Shown here piece after piece: positions 1,768 to 55,572 of a stretch of DNA of 64,000 bases. Location: contig JAMPAL010000002.1 of the NCBI GenBank assembly GCA_023667245.1, positions 20,732 through 84,731 of the forward strand, written 5' to 3'. The stretch is from Anaeroplasma bactoclasticum (GTDB taxonomy: Bacteria > Bacillota_I > Bacilli_A > ML615J-28 > CAG-313). The notes under the pieces were generated by a model. It saw nothing but the letters and a program-made list of their open reading frames with translations. It had not been told where the DNA came from and did not search any database. A program made the translations under genes and the position numbers. Position 1 is the first letter of the stretch; the number at the start of each line of letters is the position of its first letter.

Positions 1768-2634
1768 TTATTCAAATAACTTTAATTGTTCACCGGTTGG
1801 GTCAAAATATTTTAAATAGGCAAAGACATCTTTCATTTGGTATAAAATGCCATGTTCTTTACAAAATTCTTCTAATATTACCATATATTCTTGATGATGC
1901 TCACTACGTACCTCATAGCGATTGTGATACATTCGAATGTATTTTTCAGTTAAATCTGGAAAAAGTTCATCTAATTTTTGATAAAAATATTCTCTATTTC
2001 CCTCTCTTAGGGTAAGACCTATTCCAAAACAAAGAATTCCTTTTACCCCAGCTTCTAGGCATGCTTGTAATAAGGCAAGAAAATTTTCTTTTGTATCGTT
2101 GATATAAGGCAAAAAAGGGGATAACCATACAACAGTAGGAATATGGTGTTCTTTAAGCAATTGCAACACTTCAATTCTTCTTTTGGTAGTAGGAGCATAA
2201 GGTTCTATTTTTTTGACCAAATTTTCATCCATAGTCGTAAGCGTTATTTGTACTACACATTTTGCCTTTTGGTGAATACGCTCCAAAATAGGCAAATCTC
2301 TTAAAATCAAATCTGACTTGGTAATTAATGTCACACCAAAGCCGTATTTTTCAATGACTTGTAAACATTTTCTTGTCAATTGATATAGTTTTTCAATAGG
2401 CTGATATGGATCTGTCATCGATCCCATACTAATCATAGCTCGTTTTTTCCTTCTTTGAAGCGTCTGTTCTAATAAAACTGGCGCATTGACCTTTACTTCT
2501 ACATCTTCAAAATCATGTTCCATTTGATAACACTTGCTTCTAGAGTCACAATAAATACACCCATGTCTACATCCTCTATAAATATTCATTACAAGTTGTG
2601 AGGATACAATTGATTGGGCACTCACTTCATGCAT
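1768..2634 (-). CDS. Radical SAM protein, SplB/DNA-photolyase-like (COG1533-type) family
   Basis: The N-terminal motif NIYRGCRHGCIYCDSR carries the CxxxCxxC cluster in the N-x-Y-x-G-C-x-H-x-C-x-Y-C context typical of this family. Length is 288 aa. Confidence 0.85.
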   Translation of the reverse strand: MHEVSAQSIVSSQLVMNIYRGCRHGCIYCDSRSKCYQMEHDFEDVEVKVNAPVLLEQTLQRRKKRAMISMGSMTDPYQPIEKLYQLTRKCLQVIEKYGFGVTLITKSDLILRDLPILERIHQKAKCVVQITLTTMDENLVKKIEPYAPTTKRRIEVLQLLKEHHIPTVVWLSPFLPYINDTKENFLALLQACLEAGVKGILCFGIGLTLREGNREYFYQKLDELFPDLTEKYIRMYHNRYEVRSEHHQEYMVILEEFCKEHGILYQMKDVFAYLKYFDPTGEQLKLFE

Positions 2635-2648
2635 AGTCTTCCTCCTTT

Positions 2649-3644
2649 CTAAATAATGATATCTGAAATAGCATATACATCTATATGTTTATAATATATT
2701 TCTTCTAGTGGCATCCATACATTGAAATAATCCAATGCCCGTTTGCGTCGTTTAATTCTCATGAATTGCGTGTCTTGATCTATTTCTATATATATGAAGT
2801 GATCAAACTGTGCCCTAAAATAAGGATGAAATGCATATACTCCCTCCACTATGACACAATCTTTGAGTTCAATTTCTCTATTATGATAGGTTTGCGTAGT
2901 ACAACAAAAAGTCTTTAATGTCACTTTCTTTTGATGGTTCTGATATGCTTTTTTTATTTGAAGCAGACTTTCTAGAACAAGTTCATAATCTATATTACCG
3001 CCTACTTCATTTAATCTTTCTTTTGTTTTTCTTATGATTGGTAAAAAGAAGTCATCCATATGCAAAACTGTATATGTATTTTCTAGTGCTTGACATAACG
3101 TTGTCTTTCCTGATGCACAACGTCCCTCTAAAGCAATGATACTTTGGGGGCGCTGGTGCCGAAGAAAGTCTTGAAGTTGAATCAAACGCATTTCAAAAGT
3201 CAATATATCCCGATGAACCACCCTATAACATGGATGATAAGCACTATGATAGATGGTGGAGTGGTGGGGACTTTCTTCATACCAAATGGGCTGTATTTTT
3301 TCCATATACAATGCTAATGCTTGGTGATAAACAGATATAGGCCTGTTTTCTTGCGATGAAGACAGAAAGTGCTCTATGAGATAGGTGATATCTAGCCCTG
3401 CTTGAAGATAGGGTCTCAAATGAATACGAAGATATTGGGGACTTAGCCATTCATATAAGGTTTCATATGCATTGATTTGCTTAGACGCTTCTTCTTGAAT
3501 GCTTATTTTGACATACATCGGATCAGGAATAGAATAGAGATGACGTGGTCCAAGTATACCTTGATAGATTAATTTAATTTTATCTTCTCGTTGCATGGCT
3601 GGATATTTTTTAAGATGATAATTGAAAAAAATGGTGGTATCCAT
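2649..3644 (-). CDS. P-loop kinase-like protein (uridine kinase/NRK-like C-terminal domain) with an uncharacterised N-terminal domain
   Basis: Walker A motif EGRCASGKTTL lies at about residue 175. It is followed by DDFF and a short C-terminal kinase-like region. The N-terminal roughly 165 aa has no motif I recognise. Confidence 0.55.
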   Translation of the reverse strand: MDTTIFFNYHLKKYPAMQREDKIKLIYQGILGPRHLYSIPDPMYVKISIQEEASKQINAYETLYEWLSPQYLRIHLRPYLQAGLDITYLIEHFLSSSQENRPISVYHQALALYMEKIQPIWYEESPHHSTIYHSAYHPCYRVVHRDILTFEMRLIQLQDFLRHQRPQSIIALEGRCASGKTTLCQALENTYTVLHMDDFFLPIIRKTKERLNEVGGNIDYELVLESLLQIKKAYQNHQKKVTLKTFCCTTQTYHNREIELKDCVIVEGVYAFHPYFRAQFDHFIYIEIDQDTQFMRIKRRKRALDYFNVWMPLEEIYYKHIDVYAISDIII

Positions 3645-3727
3645 AAGTTCTTTTTCCTTTCTATTCCTTGAATGTTCATGATATACATATAACTACTTTT
3701 TTCAAACTAGAGTGTTTAATATCATTT

Positions 3728-4288
3728 TTATTTGGAGTTTGCATTCTTTGCAAGGCTTGTAATATATTTCACAAAAGCTGTTTTTCCTTCTGTATAATGA
3801 TCTCGGTGATGGGAATATTGTTGCCCTAAAGCAAGTTTTAACACTTCATACGCTTTGGCTATATCTATATGTGATAACAGATAATCCCGAAAATAGACCT
3901 CATCAATGTCCCCTTTTTTTCTTAGATGTATGTGAAACACTTTTTTTGCGTAGCCATCCTTGGTATATCCTTTATTTAACGACACTCGGATTTCACTTTC
4001 ACTCATACAAAGGTAGCCCCTAGCAATCAGAATGTCTTTTATAATGGTTAAAGGATAACTATCCGTCAGTTCTACTAAAATATCCACAATGGGTTTTGCC
4101 ATAATGGTTGCAATAGCAGTACTACCAATATGGTAAATAGCGAATATAGATTCTTGGGGTAAAATCTCTTTTAAGATTTCCGCTTCTTCTTGATACCAAT
4201 CTTTCCATTCTGTTTGATGCTCCACAAGCACAATAGGAAACAATTGCCACAATTCTTCTAGCGTCATTTCTGATAATTCTTTTTGCAT
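3728..4288 (-). CDS. GrpB family (UPF0157) protein
   Basis: HIGSTAI...KPIVDILV and HIHLR...RDYL... segments are characteristic of GrpB nucleotidyltransferase-fold proteins. Length is 186 aa. Confidence 0.7.
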   Translation of the reverse strand: MQKELSEMTLEELWQLFPIVLVEHQTEWKDWYQEEAEILKEILPQESIFAIYHIGSTAIATIMAKPIVDILVELTDSYPLTIIKDILIARGYLCMSESEIRVSLNKGYTKDGYAKKVFHIHLRKKGDIDEVYFRDYLLSHIDIAKAYEVLKLALGQQYSHHRDHYTEGKTAFVKYITSLAKNANSK

Positions 4289-4307
4289 CTACACCTTCTC
4301 CTTCTTT

Positions 4308-5165
4308 TTATATATTTTGGATCAACATACGAATATTTTCATATGGGCATTGTTGTAAAAAATCACCTATTTTCATAAAAGCCACTTGCTGGATTCTTGT
4401 TTCAGTAGGATGAGTTGATGGCTTTTGATTAATTTCAAAACAAACTGGATAAATCCATTTTTGAACCAATTGAAGATGATGATTAATAAACGTAATTGAA
4501 AATGCATCGAGTTGTTTGATGACTTGCTTCGTATCTAACTGGATACCTGTTTCTTCTAAGCATTCTCGGATTGCCGCATCCACGATTGTTTCATCTTGTT
4601 CTATATGTCCTTTAGGTAGTGCACATACAAGTTTACCATAAATTTCTTCTACAGTAGCCAGTATTTCATCTTTATACTTTACAATTGCCATTGCACTTGT
4701 TTCTACTTGGTAACTATCATTTATAAATGCGTCCATAAGATGAAAATAAGCCTTATCTTCTGGTTCAAAGCCATATTTTTGCCATTTTTGATATTCTATA
4801 TGAAGTACCTGGGGTTTGTCCTTTCCTTGCGTTAGGAATGTCTCTAGTAAAAATGTTTCACAATGATAAGGTCCAACAATCCACTTTTTGGGTATATCTA
4901 CATATACTTCACCTATTTTTGTATTTTTCTTATGATATTCATGCATCTTTTGTACATAATCCAAATACTGTTGAATATATTTTTTTGAATCATTTTGAAT
5001 AATAAAAACCAGTGTGGTTGACTCTATTATTTTTTGATAATTTTCTAAAGTGAGTCCTTTTTCAATGTGTAAAATTTGGGTAGAATGATTGGAAAAGAGC
5101 CGTTTTATTTGCGATATCCTTTCTTCTTTCATACTACCAAAAATGACTATTGTTTTCATATACAC
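4308..5165 (-). CDS. NUDIX hydrolase with an N-terminal extension
   Basis: Canonical Nudix box GHIEQDETIVDAAIRECLEETGI (Gx5Ex7REx2EExG) in the C-terminal half. Confidence 0.75.
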   Translation of the reverse strand: MYMKTIVIFGSMKEERISQIKRLFSNHSTQILHIEKGLTLENYQKIIESTTLVFIIQNDSKKYIQQYLDYVQKMHEYHKKNTKIGEVYVDIPKKWIVGPYHCETFLLETFLTQGKDKPQVLHIEYQKWQKYGFEPEDKAYFHLMDAFINDSYQVETSAMAIVKYKDEILATVEEIYGKLVCALPKGHIEQDETIVDAAIRECLEETGIQLDTKQVIKQLDAFSITFINHHLQLVQKWIYPVCFEINQKPSTHPTETRIQQVAFMKIGDFLQQCPYENIRMLIQNI

Positions 5166-5461: not shown

Positions 5462-8302
5462 ATGAGAAAGGAACGATCTATGTTACGAAAAATTTATATT
5501 CTATTTTTACTCTTTACGCTATCCATTTGCTTATATGGATGTACAAAACAAAATAAAACAATAAAACTCATTGTTCATGTCGTCGATAACGAAATATTAG
5601 AAGGAAAAACAGATATCAATCGTCACTTGTGGGTCTATTTGACCAATAATAGAGACCATCGTATAGAGGACTTTACCATTGATGGATACGACCCTTCCCA
5701 AATTGGAAAACAAATTTTAACCATTTCGTATAAAGGATATCAAAGTAAAGCAGTTATTTTTGTGGTAGAAAAAAATGAGGCAATTGAAATCATGGAACAT
5801 AGTGATTATCGTTTAAAAACAACACAAGCACTAGTTGCTGATGCATCTTTATTTCAACTAGAAAATACAGGACAAAATGTAGTTAGAAGAAATGGGATTA
5901 TTGCTGTATATAGATGGGAATGTCCCTACCAAACAGACGAAACTGGATGGGAAGTAGCTATCAATCAATATGGACAAGTAGAAGATACTGCTGTAAATGT
6001 AAAAATGCCCAAAAAGGGAATGATTTTATCTGTTACAGGATTAAGAGTTAGTGAACTCCAACAAATCCAAATTGGAGATTTCGTCCTATATGATGGTGAG
6101 AAAATATTTGTATATCGCGATGAGATAATAGCCAAATACAACACCTTATATACACGTTTTTATGAGGTATTGGCTGAAATTGAAAATGTCACCGCTCTAA
6201 AAGAATACAATCAAAAAGTTTCTATCCTAAATACAATGATTCCTCGTTTAGAACAAATCAATCAAACCTATGATGAGGCTATGAAAAATGAACTGATTCA
6301 AGAATTAACTCAAATGCTATCTCCTCAAGAAGAGATTGATATGTATGCACACCAACATATGTATTCCCCAATCAATGTTAGCCACTACGAAAAAAAGGAG
6401 ATAACTTTAGAAAAAGGACCAGTGGAAGATTATCTATTATATACCACTTACAATGACAAATTGTATTATGGTGGTTTTCGTAATGAAAATACAATCGTCC
6501 ATTATGATGCAAGTCACTATCAAACCCGTAATCAATGGGGATTTGAGGTGGCCGTTGATGCTGATGGATACGTTATAGATAAAAATAATCTTGTGGATTT
6601 ACCAGATGGTGGTTTCATTCTAAGTGGTCATACAGCTGGAGCCGATTTTATTCAAGAAAATATTGAAATTCATGATCGTATTGTTATCCAAAATGGAAAA
6701 CTAGAGATTTGGAGGAATCAACAATACCACTATTTATTTACTTATACCCGTTTACGAAATAGTATTATAGATGAACTCAATGTAGAATTAGAACATAAGA
6801 TTCCTCATGATTACCAGTATATTAACACATTGCTACACACCATAGATAAACTAATTGAAGAAACTTCCTATGATATGACTTGTTTTGGCAATTTACAACG
6901 ATTTTATTGTAATTATAATTTGATTCAAGATTATATCAATATCATTTATAGTCAATTGATAGATAACCAGATTGATCAAACAAGGGGCATTTGGTATTAT
7001 CCATTTCTTCGGTTCCAAGGCGTATATTACTACGATGATACCACTAAAGAAGGAATTGTTAAAACATTAACCCATTTCAAACAAATGGGTATCAATGAAA
7101 TCTTGCTTACTCCATTCTTAGAAGTGGGTACCGGTTATATGGTATATGAATCTGAGTATTATCAAACCTATGAAGCCCTTCAACATTATGATTATGGTGA
7201 ATACGGTCATGATTATTTGGAATGTTTTATTAGTGAAGCACATAAGTTAGGAATTTTTGTTACTGCTTATACACAAACCTTCTTTGCTCATGTCACCACT
7301 TTAAAAGAACCACACGATGAATATTATCAAATCAACTATCAAGGACAAAGAAGTAAATCATCTTCTTATGAGGTCTATTACTATGATATCTGTAGTCCAG
7401 AGGTTCAAGAATTATTGGTTGGCTGGTATGGTGAATTACTCACAAAATATGATTTTGATGGCGTTGAATATGATATCATTCGCTATCCTGCAAATAATCT
7501 TTACCATTATTTAGATGTAGAAGTAATCCCAAATCATGTAACGATTGAAGATCATGGGTATACTCCATACGCTATGGACAAATTTATGAATATGTATCAT
7601 TTAGAAGGGGACTTGAGAACGCATATTGTTAATTCTAAAACAGTCCGAAAAAATTGGTTGGATTTTAAAATGACGCAACTGAATCAATTCGTAGAAAGAC
7701 TATCCGCTTTTATTCGCCTGATTCAACCTGATATCAAAATCAGTGCTGCCGTGCTTTCTGATGCTAACTATGCTAAACAAAGCCATCTACAAGACTATAA
7801 AACTTGGATACAACAAGGATGGGTTGATGAAATTGAACCTATGGTTTATACGAGTAGCGTATCAGACTTTAAAAATTCGATAAATACCATTTATAATCAA
7901 GGATTAGATACTTCTATTCGAATCGGAATTGGTGCTAAACTAACTAAAGAAAATACTTACATAGATTTACAGGAAATAAAATTGATGGATGATTATGGCG
8001 GATACTTATTATTTTCATCATATTACTATTACCGCGATACTACTTTAGTTAAACTCCTCAGCAATAATCACCACTATCAATATGTCAGTGCTAGAAATAC
8101 ACAAGAAGAAATTGAAAATGCCTATATAGAAGATACGCTAGATATGATTGAAAATTATTATACCATTGTGAACAACATTACCTATGATTACTTAATCCGA
8201 GCTTTAGAATCTCATGATATCAACCGAATTATTGCGGAAATCCAAGTCATATCCGACCAACAAATGAAAACCTATCTACTACAACGCTTTTACCAGTTGT
8301 AA
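5462..8302 (+). CDS. Lipoprotein with a C-terminal glycosyl hydrolase-like 10 (GHL10/YngK-like) domain
   Basis: Signal peptide with lipobox LYGC. The C-terminal half (GIWYYPF..., INEILLTPF, FDGVEYDIIRYP, EIEPMVYT) resembles the GHL10 TIM-barrel family. A second ATG at 5480, preceded by GAAAGGAA, may be the true start. Confidence 0.65.
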   Translation: MRKERSMLRKIYILFLLFTLSICLYGCTKQNKTIKLIVHVVDNEILEGKTDINRHLWVYLTNNRDHRIEDFTIDGYDPSQIGKQILTISYKGYQSKAVIFVVEKNEAIEIMEHSDYRLKTTQALVADASLFQLENTGQNVVRRNGIIAVYRWECPYQTDETGWEVAINQYGQVEDTAVNVKMPKKGMILSVTGLRVSELQQIQIGDFVLYDGEKIFVYRDEIIAKYNTLYTRFYEVLAEIENVTALKEYNQKVSILNTMIPRLEQINQTYDEAMKNELIQELTQMLSPQEEIDMYAHQHMYSPINVSHYEKKEITLEKGPVEDYLLYTTYNDKLYYGGFRNENTIVHYDASHYQTRNQWGFEVAVDADGYVIDKNNLVDLPDGGFILSGHTAGADFIQENIEIHDRIVIQNGKLEIWRNQQYHYLFTYTRLRNSIIDELNVELEHKIPHDYQYINTLLHTIDKLIEETSYDMTCFGNLQRFYCNYNLIQDYINIIYSQLIDNQIDQTRGIWYYPFLRFQGVYYYDDTTKEGIVKTLTHFKQMGINEILLTPFLEVGTGYMVYESEYYQTYEALQHYDYGEYGHDYLECFISEAHKLGIFVTAYTQTFFAHVTTLKEPHDEYYQINYQGQRSKSSSYEVYYYDICSPEVQELLVGWYGELLTKYDFDGVEYDIIRYPANNLYHYLDVEVIPNHVTIEDHGYTPYAMDKFMNMYHLEGDLRTHIVNSKTVRKNWLDFKMTQLNQFVERLSAFIRLIQPDIKISAAVLSDANYAKQSHLQDYKTWIQQGWVDEIEPMVYTSSVSDFKNSINTIYNQGLDTSIRIGIGAKLTKENTYIDLQEIKLMDDYGGYLLFSSYYYYRDTTLVKLLSNNHHYQYVSARNTQEEIENAYIEDTLDMIENYYTIVNNITYDYLIRALESHDINRIIAEIQVISDQQMKTYLLQRFYQL

Positions 8303-8310
8303 TATAGATA

Positions 8311-8348
8311 AAAAGACTGATTACATCCCTTGTAATCAGTCTTTTTTT
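8311..8348. terminator. Bidirectional terminator between convergent genes
   Basis: Stem aagactgattaca (8313-8325) pairs with tgtaatcagtctt (8331-8343), flanked by an A-run upstream and a T-run downstream. It overlaps the stop of the 8336..8764 gene. Confidence 0.6.
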
Positions 8349-8764
8349 AAGATATCTACATCCTCTGATTTTAATCCACTATAATAACGAAGTGATATTG
8401 TAGTAAAACGCAATATACAATAATCGGAATCATTTTTTCCTTCCTTATAATATAGAATATCTTTATCTTGCCATATCATATCTTTGGTTTCCTGATTCTC
8501 CAATACTTCTATATTACCTTTTAACATTACACCGCGATAAAAACGTTTATCACAAAAATAAATGCAGGCTTTAGGATTTTCTCTAAAACATTTTACTTTT
8601 TGTGATGAGGTATTGGTCGTAAAGTAAAATTCACGTATGCCATTTCTTTTTCTAGGTTGGAACATCGCTTTAGTATTTGGAAAACCATCTTCATCAATTG
8701 AACTTATATAGCAAGTACTTTGATGGTCAATCATATTGCCAATTGTTTTTTCTACATCTCTCAT
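8336..8764 (-). CDS. Pyridoxamine 5'-phosphate oxidase-family (FMN-binding split-barrel, general stress protein 26-like) protein
   Basis: 142 aa. Pattern CYISSIDEDGFPNTKAM...FYFTTNTSSQKV..F..NPKACIYF...GVMLKGNIEVLE matches the PNPOx-like small-protein family. Its start overlaps the upstream gene stop by 4 nt. Confidence 0.65.
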   Translation of the reverse strand: MRDVEKTIGNMIDHQSTCYISSIDEDGFPNTKAMFQPRKRNGIREFYFTTNTSSQKVKCFRENPKACIYFCDKRFYRGVMLKGNIEVLENQETKDMIWQDKDILYYKEGKNDSDYCILRFTTISLRYYSGLKSEDVDILKKD

Positions 8765-9252
8765 TTTATATTCTCCTTGACTTGTTGATAATGTCTAATA
8801 TGAATGCCCATATGCCCTATGCCAAAACCGATTGTAACTGCAAGAAAGTATATATGATTGCCATATAATCCAAGCATAACAAAGGCGCATATAGGTAATA
8901 CCGCAAGAGGAATGGGGATTTTTAAAAAGGAATGATAAAAGTCAATCATCGTTCGTTTACTTTTAAAATATCTGATCCAACAAATCTCATAACAAGCCAT
9001 AAACACATAGGCTAAAACCAATAGAATGATTTTGATGGATATGTCTTGTATGTTAAAGTTTCGAGAACTGAGTAATAAACCAATGATACCCACTTCTCCT
9101 AGTCGTTCCCACATTCGCAAACCGATTTTCTCTTGCTTGACATATGTTGTATAGCCTTGGGGAAGATGATTACTTCCAATCATATTAGGGATCAATAACA
9201 ATAAGACAATAGACAAACCAACATACGAAAATCCAAATTCAATCCTCATCAT
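8761..9252 (-). CDS. Integral membrane protein, unknown function
   Basis: 163 aa with about 5 hydrophobic helices. It is translationally coupled by 4-nt overlaps at both ends. Confidence 0.6.
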   Translation of the reverse strand: MMRIEFGFSYVGLSIVLLLLIPNMIGSNHLPQGYTTYVKQEKIGLRMWERLGEVGIIGLLLSSRNFNIQDISIKIILLVLAYVFMACYEICWIRYFKSKRTMIDFYHSFLKIPIPLAVLPICAFVMLGLYGNHIYFLAVTIGFGIGHMGIHIRHYQQVKENIK

Positions 9253-10034
9253 ATATCACTATTTTTTGAAGTATGACTTACTCTTTTGGCAATTTCTAAG
9301 GCAATAAAGAAGTGTTTTAATCTTTCATCAATTGAAATTAATGATAAGATTCCTCTATCCCAGTTCTCACTATCTAAGTTATCTGCTCGGTATAAAAAAT
9401 TATATAATTCATACCCCCTAAAATTAGCAACTGCCTGGCAAGCACTCACTTCCATCTCTACTGCGATACATCCCTCACTTCTTCTTTTTTCAAAATGATG
9501 AAGGGTTTCGCGATAAAAAGCATCCGTAGTCCAAGTTTTTCCTGTTACATAGGCAATATTTAAATCACAAAGTATTTGAGCTACAACTGGATAATTTGAA
9601 ATCTTTATATAATCACTAGCTTCCATATAATGATAACTCATTCCTTCATCACGATAGGCATCTGTTGGTACAATCAAGTGATTAGAAGGAATAGTTTTAT
9701 CCAATCCTCCACAACTACCAAAAAGAACAAATTGCTTGCAAGAAAAAACATATCCAATCTCTTCAATTAAAGCGGCTGTTATGGGTGCACCCACTGTTGT
9801 TTTTACAACACCAATGTGCGTATTTTTATACACATATATAGGATATTTACAAGAAACACTTTTGATTGTCGTATCATCTATCAATTCGAGTAATCCATCC
9901 TCTATTAGCGCATCCATAATCTTATACGAGAAATTGATAATACAAACATCTAATATTTGATTACTTTTATCATACACGTCTTCTAAATTGATAATGGCTC
10001 TTCTTTCTTGGTCAAATGCATCTATTATACTCAT
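9249..10034 (-). CDS. Nucleoside phosphorylase (PNP/UDP family 1)-like protein
   Basis: 261 aa. Segments GVVKTTVGAPITAA, FGSCGG and VEMEVSA follow the arrangement of uridine/purine nucleoside phosphorylase family-1 enzymes. Confidence 0.7.
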   Translation of the reverse strand: MSIIDAFDQERRAIINLEDVYDKSNQILDVCIINFSYKIMDALIEDGLLELIDDTTIKSVSCKYPIYVYKNTHIGVVKTTVGAPITAALIEEIGYVFSCKQFVLFGSCGGLDKTIPSNHLIVPTDAYRDEGMSYHYMEASDYIKISNYPVVAQILCDLNIAYVTGKTWTTDAFYRETLHHFEKRRSEGCIAVEMEVSACQAVANFRGYELYNFLYRADNLDSENWDRGILSLISIDERLKHFFIALEIAKRVSHTSKNSDI

Positions 10035-10047
10035 TTTTTTCCTCCAG

Positions 10048-11322
10048 TTACTCCTTCATTGTTTCATCTATTTCCACTATTCTGCTATATTCTCTTAGTG
10101 GATATACACCATCATGTGCTTCACCTGAGACAATTCGCGACATATCCGCACTTGTAATTCGCACAACACCCGATGCATATATAACTTTTGCTAATTCCTC
10201 TTTTTGAGCATCACTACAAAGCAGTCCACATGTTTGTAAATGGCTTTTATACTTTTTTAGTTTTAAAATCAGCTGCTGATGGGGAAGAGGTTTGATCCAA
10301 ACATTCCGAAATAAGTACGAAAGCGTTAATTCTTGATCTTCCAAAAGAGTAACACTTACGCCATCTTCACACCATATTTTTCGGTTTGGATGTTCTAATT
10401 GATCCGTGTATAACTGAATTGTATTTTTACCACGCATCCCCATATCAGCTTTTCCTACTTCTTGATTGACTTTTTTTAGAATTTGAAAAAAGCGATATCC
10501 AAATTCAGTCAATAAATGATTGTCTTCTGTGTCTACAAAAATGCCCTGGCAAGAAGAACAAAGAATTTGATTGGTATAACAAATATGATGTGCTAAGGCT
10601 TCCAATTGAGCATCTGTTGCATCTAGTGTAGCATATGCAAACGATAACTTATGCCCCCAAGGAATGACTTTGGTTGTGACACTAGCCATTTGATACGCTG
10701 CTTTTACTGCCAAATCTCCTCCCCACACCACAATGCCATCAGCTATATCCGCAAATTTTTTGAGCGTTTGTACTTCAGTAGAAGGCACATCAAATACATA
10801 AATGTAATCTTTTAATGTCGGCTCTACCTGAACGAGTTGAGCTAATAAATGAACGGATAAGCCACTATCACCACTAGGTAATTTCAAAATATTGATATTG
10901 CCTGCTAATAACCCTTCTATAACACTGAACGCAGGAAGAACATCTACATTCCCTGCCGCAATATGAAACAAAATTCCAAGGGGCTTGCGTAAACGAGTTG
11001 TCCCATTTTTTAGTTTCTGCATATGTGCATAATCTTCTCCCCATTCTACTTTGCACTTATAAATCAATTCCTCTTCTGAAAATAACTTGGCCATATCTAA
11101 AAAACGCTCATAGGGTACATTGGTACTTTTCAAAATAGGCAATATCAAATCATCAAATTCATGATGAATAACCCTTTGATATAGCACATCACAAGCATGT
11201 ATTACTTCATGGATTTGTGGCGTGTTCAATTGACAAAGGGTATAAAGACAATCTTCTTCTAAATGATTTAAAATTCTTTCTTGCTCTTTATTTTCTAATA
11301 TTTCGCCATGATATAATATCAT
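10048..11322 (-). CDS. LuxC-family acyl-CoA reductase
   Basis: 424 aa. The segment HIAAGNVDVLPAFSVIEGLLAGNINILKLPSGD matches the conserved LuxC core (aaGNvp...lK.sS). It sits next to a LuxE-like gene. Confidence 0.75.
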   Translation of the reverse strand: MILYHGEILENKEQERILNHLEEDCLYTLCQLNTPQIHEVIHACDVLYQRVIHHEFDDLILPILKSTNVPYERFLDMAKLFSEEELIYKCKVEWGEDYAHMQKLKNGTTRLRKPLGILFHIAAGNVDVLPAFSVIEGLLAGNINILKLPSGDSGLSVHLLAQLVQVEPTLKDYIYVFDVPSTEVQTLKKFADIADGIVVWGGDLAVKAAYQMASVTTKVIPWGHKLSFAYATLDATDAQLEALAHHICYTNQILCSSCQGIFVDTEDNHLLTEFGYRFFQILKKVNQEVGKADMGMRGKNTIQLYTDQLEHPNRKIWCEDGVSVTLLEDQELTLSYLFRNVWIKPLPHQQLILKLKKYKSHLQTCGLLCSDAQKEELAKVIYASGVVRITSADMSRIVSGEAHDGVYPLREYSRIVEIDETMKE

Positions 11323-11326
11323 CTCA

Positions 11327-12439
11327 TCACCTGTCTTTCAAAAGTTCAGCCGCTCCTGCAGCACATGTTACAATATCTTTCACTCCTACTCTTCCAATAA
11401 TCTCAAGCCAAGGAGACTCAATACCACATCCACATGGATCTGTATGTAATCTTCCCAAATCATCTGTCATTACACTGACTAGGGGTACACTGTCTACCAT
11501 AGGCGTAAGAAACTGAATTAATCCGATTTGATCATTACCTAGAGGCGCTAATGTATCTACATCTCTAATAATCACCCGACTATAAATGGGTATATGAAAA
11601 TGGTGATGCTTGCAATCTGTATATAGAATAGGATGTTCAACTGCACTAAAATATTCTACTATATGTTGGTCATCAATGCCCAAAACTTCATTCACCAATT
11701 GATAAAAGTCTTGTTTTTCAACCTTTTCCGCATAAAATTGTTTCCATCCTCCACCAACGGTCACCAAAGAACCTTTTGGCATTTTCAATCGAATGCCTTC
11801 TTCTTTCATTTGCTTGAGTAAAAAATAGGTGTAAGCTGGAAATCCAATGGTTCGAATAGGGCATTTCCCTTTACTATATTGGATGAAAGCTTGTTTTAAT
11901 CGCTCTAAATCCAAATGATATTCCCCGTTCCGATATGTCAATGCATAAATCCTACTCAAACTTGGTGCATAATAGGTAGATGCATACGCTGATTTAGAAA
12001 TAACGGTTTGATTATGTTTATTAGGTTCATAACCAAAAATAATATAGTGAACGGGCTTAATTTGTAATAAGTGATGATATTTTCCTACTCGAATCGCCAT
12101 TTGAAGTGCACGCTTTAAACTAGCTAGGTTGAATCCAAGTAATGATTTTTGACCACTAGTCCCACTAGAAGTAGCCCGAATAACCATTTTTCGATTTGGC
12201 ATAGAAAACATACGATGATGCTTAAAATATAGTGTAGGAATAAAAGGAATTTGTTCAATATCTTGATAGTTTTTCAAAGCGCTTGGATGAAACCCTAAAT
12301 CATCTAATAATTGCCTATATGCCTTACAGTGCTTATAATGATATTCACAACACTCCCGTATTGCCTTGAAAAATAGGGTGTTGGTTTGATCTATATCATA
12401 TAATTTCTTATACCTAAATAATTGATTTCGATAAGACAT
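11327..12439 (-). CDS. LuxE-family acyl-protein synthetase (adenylate-forming)
   Basis: 370 aa, a LuxE-like length. It carries the adenylation motif ATSSGTSGQKS and lies 4 nt upstream of the LuxC-like gene. Confidence 0.75.
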   Translation of the reverse strand: MSYRNQLFRYKKLYDIDQTNTLFFKAIRECCEYHYKHCKAYRQLLDDLGFHPSALKNYQDIEQIPFIPTLYFKHHRMFSMPNRKMVIRATSSGTSGQKSLLGFNLASLKRALQMAIRVGKYHHLLQIKPVHYIIFGYEPNKHNQTVISKSAYASTYYAPSLSRIYALTYRNGEYHLDLERLKQAFIQYSKGKCPIRTIGFPAYTYFLLKQMKEEGIRLKMPKGSLVTVGGGWKQFYAEKVEKQDFYQLVNEVLGIDDQHIVEYFSAVEHPILYTDCKHHHFHIPIYSRVIIRDVDTLAPLGNDQIGLIQFLTPMVDSVPLVSVMTDDLGRLHTDPCGCGIESPWLEIIGRVGVKDIVTCAAGAAELLKDR

Positions 12440-12622
12440 ATAACCTCCTTATGCTCCTTTTGGTTCGTCATTGTATCTTAGCATTATTATAACATTTTTA
12501 TTTCAATTTGAGCAACGAATTCAATAAAAATGATGTTCTAAATCTCATTTTCTTTTCTTCTCTTTTCTACTTTTATTATACCCATTTAAGAAATTAGTAA
12601 TTACAATCAATTGAATATGTAT

Positions 12623-12658
12623 AAAAAAGCATAGATTTACATATTGCAAATCTATGCT
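12623..12658. terminator. Strong hairpin terminator ending the surface-protein cluster
   Basis: Stem agcatagattt (12628-12638) pairs with aaatctatgct (12648-12658). An A6 run upstream gives a T-run on the minus strand, and there is a T-rich tail on the plus strand. Confidence 0.6.
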
Positions 12659-12690
12659 TTGTTTTATTTATACTAGTAATGATAAAAATA

Positions 12691-15600
12691 TTACTCAGTT
12701 TCTACTTCTACTTTTGTAATTGTCGCTACACCATTTTCATCGATGGTAATAGTATATTTCGTTTCTGCGGATAAAACTATCGTATATGTCTTTGTTTCTT
12801 CTGCGTATGTACATTCTCTTACTACATACTTGCCATTATTCAAACAAATCAACATAATTTGATTATCAACCACATCAAAATAATTTTTATTTTCACTATC
12901 ATAATAGGTAGTAGCAGATAATTCTTCCACTTGTAAACTTTCATAAGGCTGAACTACTTCTTGTTCTTCTTCAAGTGTTGAACCTTCTTTAGAAACTAAA
13001 TTCAATTTATAATACTTAGTTGATGTTATCTTTTCTTCTTCTGTTGTTCTAACAACATAATAACATACATTCTCAATTGTAAATACTTCAGAATATTCAA
13101 TCTTCTCTTCGCCCTTCATTAAATCAATCGCATACAATGAACCTGCAGAATAGTTTCTGTTATCTGATACAATCACACGTTCAACTGTCAATTGATAGTC
13201 ACCATCAGTGATAGTTTCTACCCTAGTTAGTGCTTGAATTTGATAAGCATACATATTGAATGATGAATGATTCTTCAGTGTAAAATATAATTTATATGTA
13301 TATCCATCAGTTCCTGTTAATAAAACTGTATACAATCCATTTTCATATGTATATGCAGATTTTTCTGTAGAAAGCAATTGTCCTTCTAAATCAAAGGCAC
13401 CGCTTCCTTCTAGGAAATCTAATTTTACATAATCTTCAAGTAAAGCACCATCTACATCATAAGTCTTGTATAGATAGAATACACCAAATTGATTAGTAAA
13501 GGCATTGGCATAGTTTGGACCAAGGAAAGAATAAAGCGTATAATAGATCTCTAAGTATGCATAAGGTAAGAATGAACGAATAAATCTTAAGTTAGTTACT
13601 TCATACTTACTATCAGTTTCACCATTTTCATTTTTTCCTGTAAATTTGGCATTAAAATCAAAACGATAATAACCCACCATGAAATACATTTCATATTCAC
13701 CATCAACCAATTCTCTAATTACTGTACACATATAATTTTGGCCATTGATTTTAACACTACCTGAAACAGCAAATGTATCTGATCCTGATGGTGTAAATGT
13801 TAACTCTTCAGTAGCCGCATACAATTCTGGATCTGAAGTAACTAGTACTGGATAATTATTGCTAGTTTCTGCTTTTCTAGTGAATGTAATCGCATAACCA
13901 TCATTGGCATAATAAGTTTCACCGCCATATGTTTTGACATCATCAAATTCACCAAAAATTTCTTCTACGAATCCATATTCATTTGCATTTGGATCTTCTG
14001 TATCTTGATGATAAATAATAACATCATCACCATTCATCGTATAATAATATCTCGTTTCATTATTGAAAATAGCGAATCCATATTGTGAGAATAAAAGTGA
14101 CTTTAAGTCTTCGGTGTAATAACCACGCGCAGTAAAGTTCTCTTCTATAATGGTTCCATTTTCTGGATTATACTTAAAGATATTGGCACTTGTTCCTTCA
14201 TTGTTTACATAATACAAGATGGAATCTGTGATAATCATATAAGTACCATTTTCAGCTACACCATTTTTATCAACCTTGGTTGCATTACCAATAGAATCTA
14301 ATTTCAATATAGACCAATCTTTTTCATTCAAATATGTGCTAACAACTTCTTTATTTTCAATGAAGAAAGAATTGAATACGGTAGAACCATAGGTATATGT
14401 TCCTAAGTAACCATATAGTGTTACATCTTGATTATCTTCAGTATATTGAATTGTATAATAATCATCTACTGATGAATATGTAGCATTTTCATCAATCACT
14501 ACTTCTACAGCATTGCCTTCTGCATCATATTCAAATGTAAATACTTTAACTTTACCATAACCATCTATTGAAAGATATATGCCTTTTGTACCTTGATTAT
14601 ATATAACAATATAAGTACCATACTCAGGGCCACGTGCTGTAAATGTACGACCAGAAATATCAAAATAACGATAAGATGAATCTAGTGCAATTCGAATTAC
14701 ATTTTCTGAAACAACATTATAGATTCCTGAATAGGTATTACCTTCCATATCTGTATATGTACCGAATAATGAATATCCATCTAAATATAGTGTACCATCA
14801 TTTGATTTGTATGTACCATAATATTCACCATAATATGGGAATACAAATAAATTTTGCGAAAGAGTAATTTGTAAGAATTTAAATGTTTTTTCTTCTGATG
14901 TGAATTGATATACTTGGAATTCTTGTTCAGTTTTTTCATCTAGTTGAGTAACTGTACCTTCAATAGTGTGTTGAACAGCCTCTTCTTTTTTATCTTCGCC
15001 TTCTCCAACCCATTCAGTCACATAATATACATAGATTGCATTACCTTTTCCATCAAATGTTACAAACTCTTGTTTAGAATATGTTCCATCACCCATTACA
15101 ACATATGCACTATACGGTGCATGATTTAAAGCAACAAACGTTTTATTTTCTTCATCAATTTCAAGATAAAGCGAGCCTTGACTAGTTGTAACTGTAGTTA
15201 AACCATCTTTTGTTGCATATGTTCCAACAATTGTATTTTCGCCATTAGAGATAATAGCAAGTCCTGCAACTAATTTTAAAGTTAAGCCATCAGTTGAAGT
15301 ATAGTCTACATCATATGATGTTGTTTCATCACCCACTGTAACAGAATACCAATAATTGATTGGATATTGAGTTGAAGTTGAATCTAATCCAAATACAATT
15401 GATTTCACTGTTTTCAAATCAATGATATCATCGATTACTTCTTTGTCATAAACTTCTTCTGTTACAAATGTATATAATCCTGTAACTGCATCATATTCAT
15501 ATGCACCTTGTAAAATTAATTCATAAGTCTTTGATGATGTATACCCATAAATAGAAGCAATTCCTGGTGCAAAATCATTGATGACAATCAAAGGAGCATA

Positions 15601-53613: not shown

Positions 53614-53665
53614 AAAATGTCAATTTAGTATAAAAATTGACATTTTTTACCAATATTTGTATAAT
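53614..53665 (+). promoter_or_regulatory. Consensus promoter TTGACA-N17-TATAAT overlapped by a perfect 13-bp inverted repeat (candidate operator)
   Basis: -35 TTGACA at 53637-53642, an exact 17-nt spacer, and -10 TATAAT at 53660-53665. The inverted-repeat arms are aaaatgtcaattt (53614-53626) and aaattgacatttt (53634-53646). Confidence 0.65.
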
Positions 53666-53699
53666 ATATTTATATATTATGAAATGGAGGGGTAAATAT

Positions 53700-55046
53700 A
53701 TGATTAGAAAGTATTTGAATGCAGATGTATATCATAGTCTATTGAAGCGCCTAAATTTTATATTTAAACAATTTGATAATATATATGTTTCATTTTCCGG
53801 AGGTAAAGATAGCGGACTATTATTAAACTTGGTCCTTGATTTTCAAAAAAAATATTATCCTAATCGTAAAATTGGTGTTTTCCATCAGGATTTTGAAGCA
53901 CAGTACACGCTAACAGCTGAATATGTTGAACGAACTTTTGAAAAGATAAAAGATAGTGTTGAACCCTACTGGGTGTGTTTACCTATGGCCACTAGAACTG
54001 CTGTAAGCAATTACAAAATGTACTGGTATCCTTGGGATGATACCAAAGAAGAATTATGGGTTAGAAAAATGCCCAAACATGATTATGTCATTAATCTCAA
54101 AAATAATAAGATTACTACCTATCGTTATCAAATGCATCAAGAAGATTTAGCAAAACAATTTGGAAGGTGGTACAAAGAAATTCACGAAGGAAAATCGACC
54201 ATTTGTTTATTGGGTATTCGTGCTGATGAGTCACTACAAAGATATAGTGGATTTTTAAATAAAAAATATGGGTATATGGGACAATGCTGGATTACAAACC
54301 AATTTAAAAATGTGTGGTGTGCTTCCCCTTTATACGATTGGAGTGTTAGCGATGTATGGCATGCCAATTTCTTATTTGGATATGACTATAATCGCCTTTA
54401 TGACCTATATTATATGGCCGGGTTAAAACCATCACAAATGCGTGTGGCTTCTCCTTTTAATGATAGTGCAAAAGAAAGTTTAAACTTATACAGAATTATT
54501 GATCCCGAAATATGGGTAAAACTCGTTGGTAGAGTACATGGTGCAAATTTTGCTTCCATCTATGGTAAAACAAAAGCACTGGGTTATCGCAATATTACAC
54601 TTCCAGAAGGACATACATGGGAGTCCTATACTAAATTTCTTCTTTCTACGCTTCCTACACAAATTCGCAACAATTATGTCAAAAAATTCAATACATCTAT
54701 TCAATTTTGGCATACCATTGGTGGTGGTTTAGAAGACGAGGTTATTGAAGAATTAATTCAAAAAGGATATCATATCCGTTGTAATGGTGTTTCAAATTAT
54801 ACCGTTTTAAAAAATAAGCGAGTTGTGTTTGTAGGTAAAATACCTGATCATACAGATGATATTCGCTCTACTAAAGATATACCTAGTTGGAAAAGAATGT
54901 GTTACTGCATTTTAAAAAATGATCATATATGCCGATTCATGGGATTTGGATTATCTAGACAGCAACAGAAATTACTTGATACAATTAAAGAAAAATACAA
55001 AATTTTGGAAGAGGTGGATGATGAGTTACAAAAGTCCAGTATATAA
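53700..55046 (+). CDS. IbrA-like PAPS-reductase/PP-loop ATPase with a DUF3440-type C-terminal domain
   Basis: PP-loop motif SFSGGKDS lies near the N terminus, and the long C-terminal domain has a WK.MC..ILKND..C-like segment. I place the start at ATG 53700, preceded by GGAGGGG. The track start at 53637 lies inside the promoter. Confidence 0.8.
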   Translation: MIRKYLNADVYHSLLKRLNFIFKQFDNIYVSFSGGKDSGLLLNLVLDFQKKYYPNRKIGVFHQDFEAQYTLTAEYVERTFEKIKDSVEPYWVCLPMATRTAVSNYKMYWYPWDDTKEELWVRKMPKHDYVINLKNNKITTYRYQMHQEDLAKQFGRWYKEIHEGKSTICLLGIRADESLQRYSGFLNKKYGYMGQCWITNQFKNVWCASPLYDWSVSDVWHANFLFGYDYNRLYDLYYMAGLKPSQMRVASPFNDSAKESLNLYRIIDPEIWVKLVGRVHGANFASIYGKTKALGYRNITLPEGHTWESYTKFLLSTLPTQIRNNYVKKFNTSIQFWHTIGGGLEDEVIEELIQKGYHIRCNGVSNYTVLKNKRVVFVGKIPDHTDDIRSTKDIPSWKRMCYCILKNDHICRFMGFGLSRQQQKLLDTIKEKYKILEEVDDELQKSSI

Positions 55047-55572
55047 TATTATTGCGGTGCCACTAGAAAAGATTATTCCCAATACGTATAATCCCAATTC
55101 CGTTGCACCACCAGAACTCCAGTTATTATATGAAAGCATCAAAATCGATGGCTATACTATGCCTATTGTATGTTATTACAATCCAGTAGAAGACAACTAT
55201 ATCATTATAGATGGTTTTCATCGTTATCGCATTATGTTGGAATATCCTGATATTTATGAAAGGGAAAATGGTCTATTACCTGTATCTGTCATTGATAAAT
55301 CATTTGATTACCGAATGGCGAGTACCATTCGACATAATCGTGCAAGAGGTAGCCATAATGTAGACTTAATGAGCAATATTGTCAAAGAATTGACCAAATT
55401 AGGCCGTTCTGATGCGTGGATTTCAAAACATCTAGGTATGGATAAAGATGAAATATTGCGACTGAAACAAATAACTGGTTTAGAAGCTCTTTTTAAAGAT
55501 GTTGATTTTGGAAAAAGTTGGGTACCTGAAGAAGAAATTAAATTAATAGATGAAAAAGAGAAAATAGGTTAA
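55018..55572 (+). CDS. IbrB-like ParB/Srx-fold nuclease-domain protein
   Basis: ParB-like N-terminal domain (VPLEKIIPNTYNPNSV ... IIDGFHRY). The start ATGATG at 55018 overlaps the end of the upstream gene and is preceded by GGAAGAGGTGG. Confidence 0.8.
   Translation: MMSYKSPVYNIIAVPLEKIIPNTYNPNSVAPPELQLLYESIKIDGYTMPIVCYYNPVEDNYIIIDGFHRYRIMLEYPDIYERENGLLPVSVIDKSFDYRMASTIRHNRARGSHNVDLMSNIVKELTKLGRSDAWISKHLGMDKDEILRLKQITGLEALFKDVDFGKSWVPEEEIKLIDEKEKIG

Follow-up and report, generated by a model that had tools for sequence, protein, structure and literature searches.

We examined a 64,000-nucleotide (nt) stretch of the Anaeroplasma bactoclasticum assembly GCA_023667245.1 (contig JAMPAL010000002.1), hereafter the window, in which five consecutive minus-strand genes encode a LuxE-like acyl-protein synthetase, a LuxC-like reductase, a protein of the PNP/UDP superfamily (PNP-like), a small membrane protein and a PNPOx-like flavoprotein. 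The last three genes are referred to as the trio. With a probability of roughly 0.7, we read the locus as two modules, independent of each other in evolution and in function, that have become fused in transcription: luxE-luxC (module A, 10048–12439) and the clade-specific trio (module B, 8336–10034). All coordinates are positions of the whole window, which has a GC content of ~31%, and the related sequences compared are designated L (loci) or P (proteins) followed by a number. The genes and signals of the locus are as follows, with lengths in amino acids (aa).

11327–12439, minus strand: luxE-like acyl-protein synthetase, 370 aa (open reading frame (ORF) list and Pfam)
10048–11322, minus strand: luxC-like acyl-thioester reductase, 424 aa (ORF list and Pfam)
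9249–10034, minus strand: PNP/UDP-superfamily protein (PNP-like), 261 aa, first gene of the trio (ORF list and Pfam)
8761–9252, minus strand: small polytopic membrane protein, 163 aa, second gene of the trio (ORF list and hydrophobic stretches)
8336–8764, minus strand: PNPOx-like / Pyrid_ox_like split-barrel flavoprotein, 142 aa, third gene of the trio (ORF list and Pfam)
12628–12660, minus strand: AT-rich hairpin with T-run, upstream operon boundary (fold and sequence reading)
12486–12515, minus strand: candidate operon promoter, TTGCTC, 18 nt, extended -10 TGTTATAAT (sequence reading)
8310–8346, minus strand: intrinsic terminator, operon end (terminator scan and fold)

Reading from luxE, the genes are separated by a 4-nt gap and a 13-nt gap and then joined by two 4-nt ATGA overlaps, the first of which places the start of the membrane-protein gene over the stop of the PNP-like gene. 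The ORF list reproduced this arrangement exactly as an earlier note on this DNA had described it. The 13-nt gap between luxC and the PNP-like gene has its own GGAGG, and no terminator was found between these two genes. At the downstream end, the terminator at 8310–8346 was scored with 16 pairs and a T-run by the scan, folds at -19.6 kcal/mol (z = -6.1) and is conserved in the related locus L011. At the upstream end, the hairpin at 12628–12660 folds at -22.7 kcal/mol (z = -7.2), with 0/200 shuffles equally stable; it was missed by the terminator scan because it has too few G-C pairs. This hairpin is the terminator of the preceding gene, which encodes a 1641-aa Flg_new surface protein, and is conserved in L171 and L173. 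The locus is thus bracketed by strong hairpins on both sides, as had been noted before. The Flg_new repeats of the 1641-aa protein were seen in the sister genome.

Between the upstream hairpin and luxE, the extended -10 TGTTATAAT at 12486–12494 marks a candidate operon promoter, which is absent from the consensus-scan list because its -35 element is weak. Together, the tight packing of the genes is consistent with a single transcript for all five. Searches with Rfam, at the gathering threshold over the window and at an E-value threshold over 8000–13000, returned tRNAs elsewhere and sub-threshold hairpin matches, with no riboswitch or leader RNA. No paralogues of the five genes were found elsewhere in the window. 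A role in anti-phage defence was considered and rejected, as none of the five proteins has a PADLOC match.

The LuxE-LuxC pair

We compared the two large proteins with their Pfam profiles and with the LuxC-LuxE complex of Photobacterium phosphoreum (PDB 7XC6), which is the only solved LuxC-LuxE structure. The LuxE-like protein matches PF04443 with 162.4 bits (cut-off 24.9), its residues 16–362 covering positions 31–385 of the 391 in the profile, and matches chain E of 7XC6 with E = 2.6e-27 (99 bits). In that alignment, K233, R350 and C359 correspond to Lys238, Arg355 and Cys364 of the P. phosphoreum protein, where Lys238 and Arg355 serve adenylation and thioesterification and Cys364, in a flexible C-terminal motif, is the acyl carrier (PMC9157457). 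These three residues are invariant in 79/79 relatives, and C359 sits 11 residues from the C-terminus. The LuxC-like protein matches PF05893 with 201 bits (cut-off 21), residues 35–414 covering positions 4–400 of 401, and matches chain A of 7XC6 with E = 1.3e-12 (51 bits). Its C255 aligns with the catalytic Cys296 and its H403/D404 with His442/Asp443, and all three are invariant in 80/80 relatives. The catalytic cysteine is Cys296 of P. phosphoreum LuxC, or Cys286 in the older numbering, with the offset checked against His442/Asp443; Cys296 is the acyl acceptor and His442/Asp443 lie close by (PMC9157457).

Considering both the Pfam scores and the aligned invariant residues, the two proteins are true members of the LuxE and LuxC families with a complete acyl relay. 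The hidden Markov models (HMMs) and catalytic residues rule out an identity as an ordinary aldehyde dehydrogenase or PaaK, and they bear out the family assignment made in the earlier note. LuxE also lacks the C-terminal ANL/PaaK subdomain (370 aa, compared with 437–443 aa for PaaK), a trait that it has in common with the P. phosphoreum protein, and PaaK matches to it are confined to residues 17–110 or 260–361, which are parts of the adenylation domain.

By analogy with the solved and assayed Photobacterium complex, the pair would act as a self-contained carboxylic-acid reductase of the bioluminescence type that depends on ATP and NAD(P)H. In this scheme, LuxE would adenylate the acid to an acyl-AMP and pass the acyl group, as a thioester, to Cys359 in its flexible C-terminal tail; the tail would then hand the acyl group to Cys255 of LuxC, which would reduce the thioester with NAD(P)H to the free aldehyde. 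We infer this acid-to-aldehyde chemistry from the conserved residues and the complex together. The relay residues (Lys and Arg plus the tail Cys in LuxE, Cys plus His-Asp in LuxC), the two Pfam families and the adjacency of the genes are shared with P. phosphoreum. The differences are that the window has luxE followed by luxC whereas luminous bacteria have luxC...luxE, that the window LuxC is ~50 residues shorter, and that the hosts of the window pair are, unlike luminous bacteria, anaerobic and low-GC, with the distant matches of 99 and 51 bits given above. The window also differs from a luminous lux operon in having no luxA, luxB or luxD among the ORFs scanned, in agreement with the earlier reading of the locus: the scan of the five genes and 20 other mid-sized window ORFs (six ORFs of >900 aa were not included) yielded no luciferase or LuxD family, and neither Bac_luciferase nor LuxD is among the recurrent neighbours of luxEC in 80 related loci.

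To place the pair among its relatives, we searched a LuxC alignment against one genome per GTDB species, which gave 324 loci, and analysed the best 80 (52–97% identity). In 80/80 of these, luxE is the gene immediately upstream of luxC and has the same orientation. De novo clustering of the neighbouring ORFs in the 80 loci returned no third partner: the clusters were either shadow ORFs or generic families (HTH regulators, peptidases, BipA, ABC), and none of them occurs in more than 10/80 loci. Fusions were seen as well: LuxC carries a C-terminal AMP-binding (adenylating) domain in P0394, P0397 and P0411 (820–850 aa), and one relative, P0408, is a LuxE-LuxC fusion protein. The universal adjacency and these fusion relatives (Rosetta-stone support) support LuxE and LuxC as a self-sufficient unit. 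In a 50%-identity library, the LuxC family comprises 1240 representative clusters at E <= 0.001 and 222 at E <= 1e-30. Overall, hundreds of anaerobic low-GC species share luxE-luxC as a conserved cassette of two genes that has no conserved neighbour; the user of the aldehyde is therefore encoded elsewhere or belongs to general metabolism. Hosts include Lachnospiraceae/Acetatifactor, Ruminococcus and Acutalibacteraceae, as well as metagenome-assembled genomes (MAGs) labelled Mollicutes, Anaeroplasma, Acholeplasmataceae and Izemoplasmatales. Some LuxC relatives are already named 'acyl-CoA reductase' or 'long-chain-fatty-acyl-CoA reductase' in public annotation. The public taxon labels look unreliable, as proteins 97% identical to the window LuxC are labelled 'Prevotella sp.' in one case and 'Staphylococcus sp.' in another, names at odds both with one another and with the window's GC content of ~31%.

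LuxE and LuxC in non-luminous bacteria are already known, and the window pair adds a further member of a known enzyme type. Homologues have been described in flagellin-glycosylation islands of non-luminous Aeromonas (PMC7874193) and in non-luminous Riemerella anatipestifer (AS87_03730), in a report that also cites the LuxE domain of V. cholerae RfbN (PMC4772473). As in the window, these are a LuxE-type synthetase and a LuxC-type reductase outside bioluminescence. However, the Aeromonas, Riemerella and V. cholerae copies lie in glycan or O-antigen clusters with acyl carrier protein, ketoreductase and glycosyltransferase genes, whereas the window pair has no conserved neighbours and belongs to a subfamily from Bacillota- and Mollicutes-type MAGs. 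A literature search on this subfamily in Lachnospiraceae or Mollicutes found nothing specific.

By family analogy, the substrate is probably a medium- or long-chain fatty acid, as reduction of long-chain fatty acids is the one activity characterised for members of either Pfam family (PMC9157457). Two observations limit this assignment. First, both proteins score far short of the NCBIfam equivalog cut-offs of their luminous counterparts, with 118.5 vs 550 bits for NF052244 (long-chain-fatty-acid--protein ligase LuxE) and 64.8 vs 750 bits for NF052251 (long-chain-fatty-acyl-CoA reductase LuxC). Second, outside the core motifs LuxC aligns too poorly with the solved chain for a comparison of the acyl cleft with that of P. 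phosphoreum LuxC. The pair might instead act on another carboxylic acid (hydroxy, aromatic or short-chain), an option that we regard as unlikely, although it draws on the same equivalog scores and on several parallels: LuxE also has weak PaaK- and FlxY-type matches and PaaK relatives, LuxE-domain proteins take part in sugar or O-antigen modification, homologues occur in the glycosylation islands and RfbN cited above, and no luxD-type thioesterase that could supply fatty acids was found among the window ORFs scanned. Against it, none of the 80 loci has glycosyltransferase or sugar-pathway neighbours, and the PaaK matches are partial, falling chiefly on the N-terminal ~90 residues of the adenylation domain.

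Linkage, losses and selection in related genomes

The earlier note had proposed that the five genes could make or salvage an aldehyde-bearing nucleoside or cofactor-like metabolite, and had named beforehand a lack of conserved linkage as a result that would count against this. Read as one pathway, the aldehyde of LuxE and LuxC would be incorporated into such a metabolite, or come from it, and the trio would act on that metabolite. The linkage was found not to be conserved across lineages. In the 80 LuxC-centred loci, which are the closest relatives, so that their choice should favour detecting a linkage rather than hide it, only L011, a sister 97% identical to the window, has the PNP-like and membrane genes behind luxC (1/80), and none has an intact PNPOx gene there (0/80). 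The converse test, centred on the PNP-like gene, covered 86 loci, of which 54 span 6 kb or more; in 0/86 does LuxE, LuxC, PNPOx or the membrane protein occur within 5 kb. The genes of close relatives of the PNP-like protein (80%, 77% and 67% identity) have unrelated surroundings. The five-gene linkage is thus limited to one narrow clade, consisting of the window, L011/L004 and L173/L174.

Contigs syntenic with the window (Flg_new ... GHL10, GrpB, deoxynucleoside-kinase-like, radical SAM) fall into three genotypes, all of which have the PNP-like and membrane genes:

Genotype 1 (window, L173/L174): luxE-luxC present, PNP-like and membrane genes present, PNPOx intact
Genotype 2 (L011/L004): luxE-luxC present, PNP-like and membrane genes present, PNPOx a pseudogene
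Genotype 3 (L171/L172, two samples): luxE-luxC deleted, PNP-like and membrane genes present, PNPOx intact

Within genotype 1, the LuxC of L173 is 84% identical to that of the window. In genotype 2, luxE and luxC are 99% and 97% identical to those of the window at the amino acid level and all four upstream genes are intact, while the counterpart of window 8336–8764 (L011:9558-9900, equivalent to L004 8561–8917) has lost 100 nt after codon 3 and contains several in-frame stops. In genotype 3, luxE and ~90% of luxC are gone, such that the luxE leader with its extended -10 now runs straight into the final 42 codons of luxC (junction region L171:4826-5215, syntenic with window 10048–12620), and the intact trio lies directly downstream. 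Because luxEC has been lost in L171/L172 and PNPOx in L011/L004, each half survives without the other. Selection was assessed from pairwise ratios of nonsynonymous to synonymous substitution rates (dN/dS), which are 0.05–0.28 and indicate purifying selection for all five genes. The trio remains under purifying selection in the luxEC-less L171/L172 (0.07–0.21, pairwise), and luxE/luxC give 0.06–0.13 between the window and its PNPOx-less sister L011.

The deletion also informs how the trio is transcribed. The promoter block is conserved in L171 and directly precedes the trio there, after the luxEC deletion, which suggests that transcription from the luxE promoter normally extends through the trio. 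The retained block supports the operon reading, without lending support to a functional dependence. Under the two-module interpretation, the trio, found together only in this narrow clade, would probably be read from the luxE promoter, and the co-transcription would come without demonstrable functional dependence.

Several points limit the two-module interpretation. The proposed co-transcription is judged from the gene arrangement. The order of the five genes is kept between the window and L173 despite a synonymous divergence (dS) of ~0.5–1.0. The tight spacing (13–25 nt from luxC to the trio in the clade) and the lack of a terminator between luxC and the PNP-like gene may leave room for a local functional tie. 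Finally, the linkage tests cover adjacency within 5–7 kb.

Two further explanations give the fusion a function. In the first, the orphan luxEC, conserved in hundreds of strictly anaerobic gut and sediment genomes of Bacillota and Mollicutes type, would supply fatty aldehydes (or alcohols after reduction) for an undescribed lipid or signalling route of anaerobes and the trio would have been fused to it adaptively in this clade, for example for aldehyde handling or detoxification, which we consider improbable. The second, the single five-gene pathway of the earlier note, is very improbable, as its favourable points (one strand, the GGAGG-bearing 13-nt gap, no internal terminator, a single flanking promoter and terminator, an order kept in at least three diverged lineages (window, L011/L004, L173/L174) and purifying selection on every gene) are opposed by the linkage counts of 1/80 and 0/86, by the reciprocal losses in the clade and by the unrelated contexts of PNP-like relatives at 67–80% identity.

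Two side observations concern the same contigs. Between the window and L011, dS is 0.07–0.09 for luxE/luxC and 0.27–0.32 for the PNP-like and membrane genes (~four-fold lower in luxEC), and DNA identity over 8700–12600 is 96–99% across luxEC and 76–94% on both sides; a recent recombinational exchange of the luxEC segment is possible. In addition, an HTH_3 regulator and a 115-aa ORF lie between the Flg_new gene and the luxE promoter in L173 (L173:1720-2530) and L171 (L171:4014-4825) and are absent from the window and L011.

The trio and the wider window

The earlier note called the first trio protein a nucleoside phosphorylase-like enzyme. Its family membership stands, as it matches PF01048 (PNP_UDP_1) with 75.4 bits (cut-off 25.1), although it misses all NCBIfam cut-offs; the phosphorylase part is put in doubt by its active site. 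In alignments with the best PDB matches, 4LDN and 4LNH, the phosphate-binding Arg of the '(I/V)R(I/V)GS' motif is replaced by Leu. Compared with E. coli DeoD, 118 members of the family have L/I at R24, S/A at R43 and L/M at R87, with G20 falling in a gap, while the ribose and base contacts S90, F159, M180, E181 and D204 (DeoD numbering) are kept in 111–118 of 118. We take the DeoD residue numbering (R24, R43', R87, G20 loop) as a lead and the 4LDN/4LNH alignments as the test. The family therefore resembles DeoD-type purine nucleoside phosphorylases and uridine phosphorylase in fold family and in ribose and base contacts, and differs from the DeoD/Udp enzymes in having no equivalents of the phosphate-binding arginines and the G20 loop. 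As these arginines are missing, canonical phosphorolysis is doubtful; the family is probably not a phosphorylase, and the protein may cleave nucleosides without phosphate. The family is large (2976 clusters), widespread, stand-alone and Clostridia-type, and among its members P0121–P0240 some are fused to GNAT (P0138, P0173) or ASCH (P0183) domains.

The 163-aa protein has no Pfam, NCBIfam or PADLOC match. It is hydrophobic, with several stretches of ~19 or more residues, which fits its earlier description as a membrane protein. Its family is small (40 related clusters), and it adjoins the PNP-like and PNPOx genes only in the clade of the window. Distant relatives at 42–48% identity (L175–L178) sit alone in variable islands, next to ParE/Phd toxin-antitoxin, Fic, HerA/DUF87, HEPN/nucleotidyltransferase and PadR genes. 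For the third protein, the earlier assignment as a PNPOx-like flavoprotein was confirmed by PNPOx_N (PF01243, 56.1 vs 28.1 bits) and Pyrid_ox_like (PF16242, 52.3 vs 28.8 bits). Like the Pyrid_ox_like or general-stress-protein-26-type FMN split-barrel proteins, it is small and single-domain, with both profiles above cut-off. It is dispensable in a sister strain (the pseudogene of L011). An identity as PdxH (pyridoxamine-phosphate oxidase) was rejected, since the equivalog was missed with 33.7 vs 180 bits.

Further features of the window lie outside the locus:

1768–5165, minus strand: NUDIX, GrpB, deoxynucleoside-kinase-like and radical-SAM genes, beyond an oppositely oriented GHL10 gene
12691–37345, minus strand: run of very large ORFs, 900–2982 aa
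23290–27232, minus strand, within that run: MoxR-type AAA_3 ATPase, DUF58 and BatA/VWA gene set
53637–55046, plus strand: PAPS_reduct+DUF3440 protein, overlapping the next ORF
54919–55572, plus strand: weak, sub-threshold ParB_N-like ORF

The nucleotide-flavoured neighbourhood at 1768–5165 might have more to do with the PNP-like trio than luxEC has. The PAPS_reduct+DUF3440 and ParB_N-like genes presumably resemble an IbrA/IbrB-type pair.

A new aldehyde-nucleoside pathway would, if true, have added to known metabolism; the evidence speaks against it. Under the two-module interpretation, the locus would instead be a clean case in which tight spacing and start-stop overlaps do not imply a shared pathway. 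The widespread LuxE-LuxC subfamily of non-luminous anaerobes, which invariably occurs as a bare pair, may bear on the lipid metabolism of gut anaerobes. Carboxylic-acid reductases for making aldehydes or alcohols could be drawn from it.

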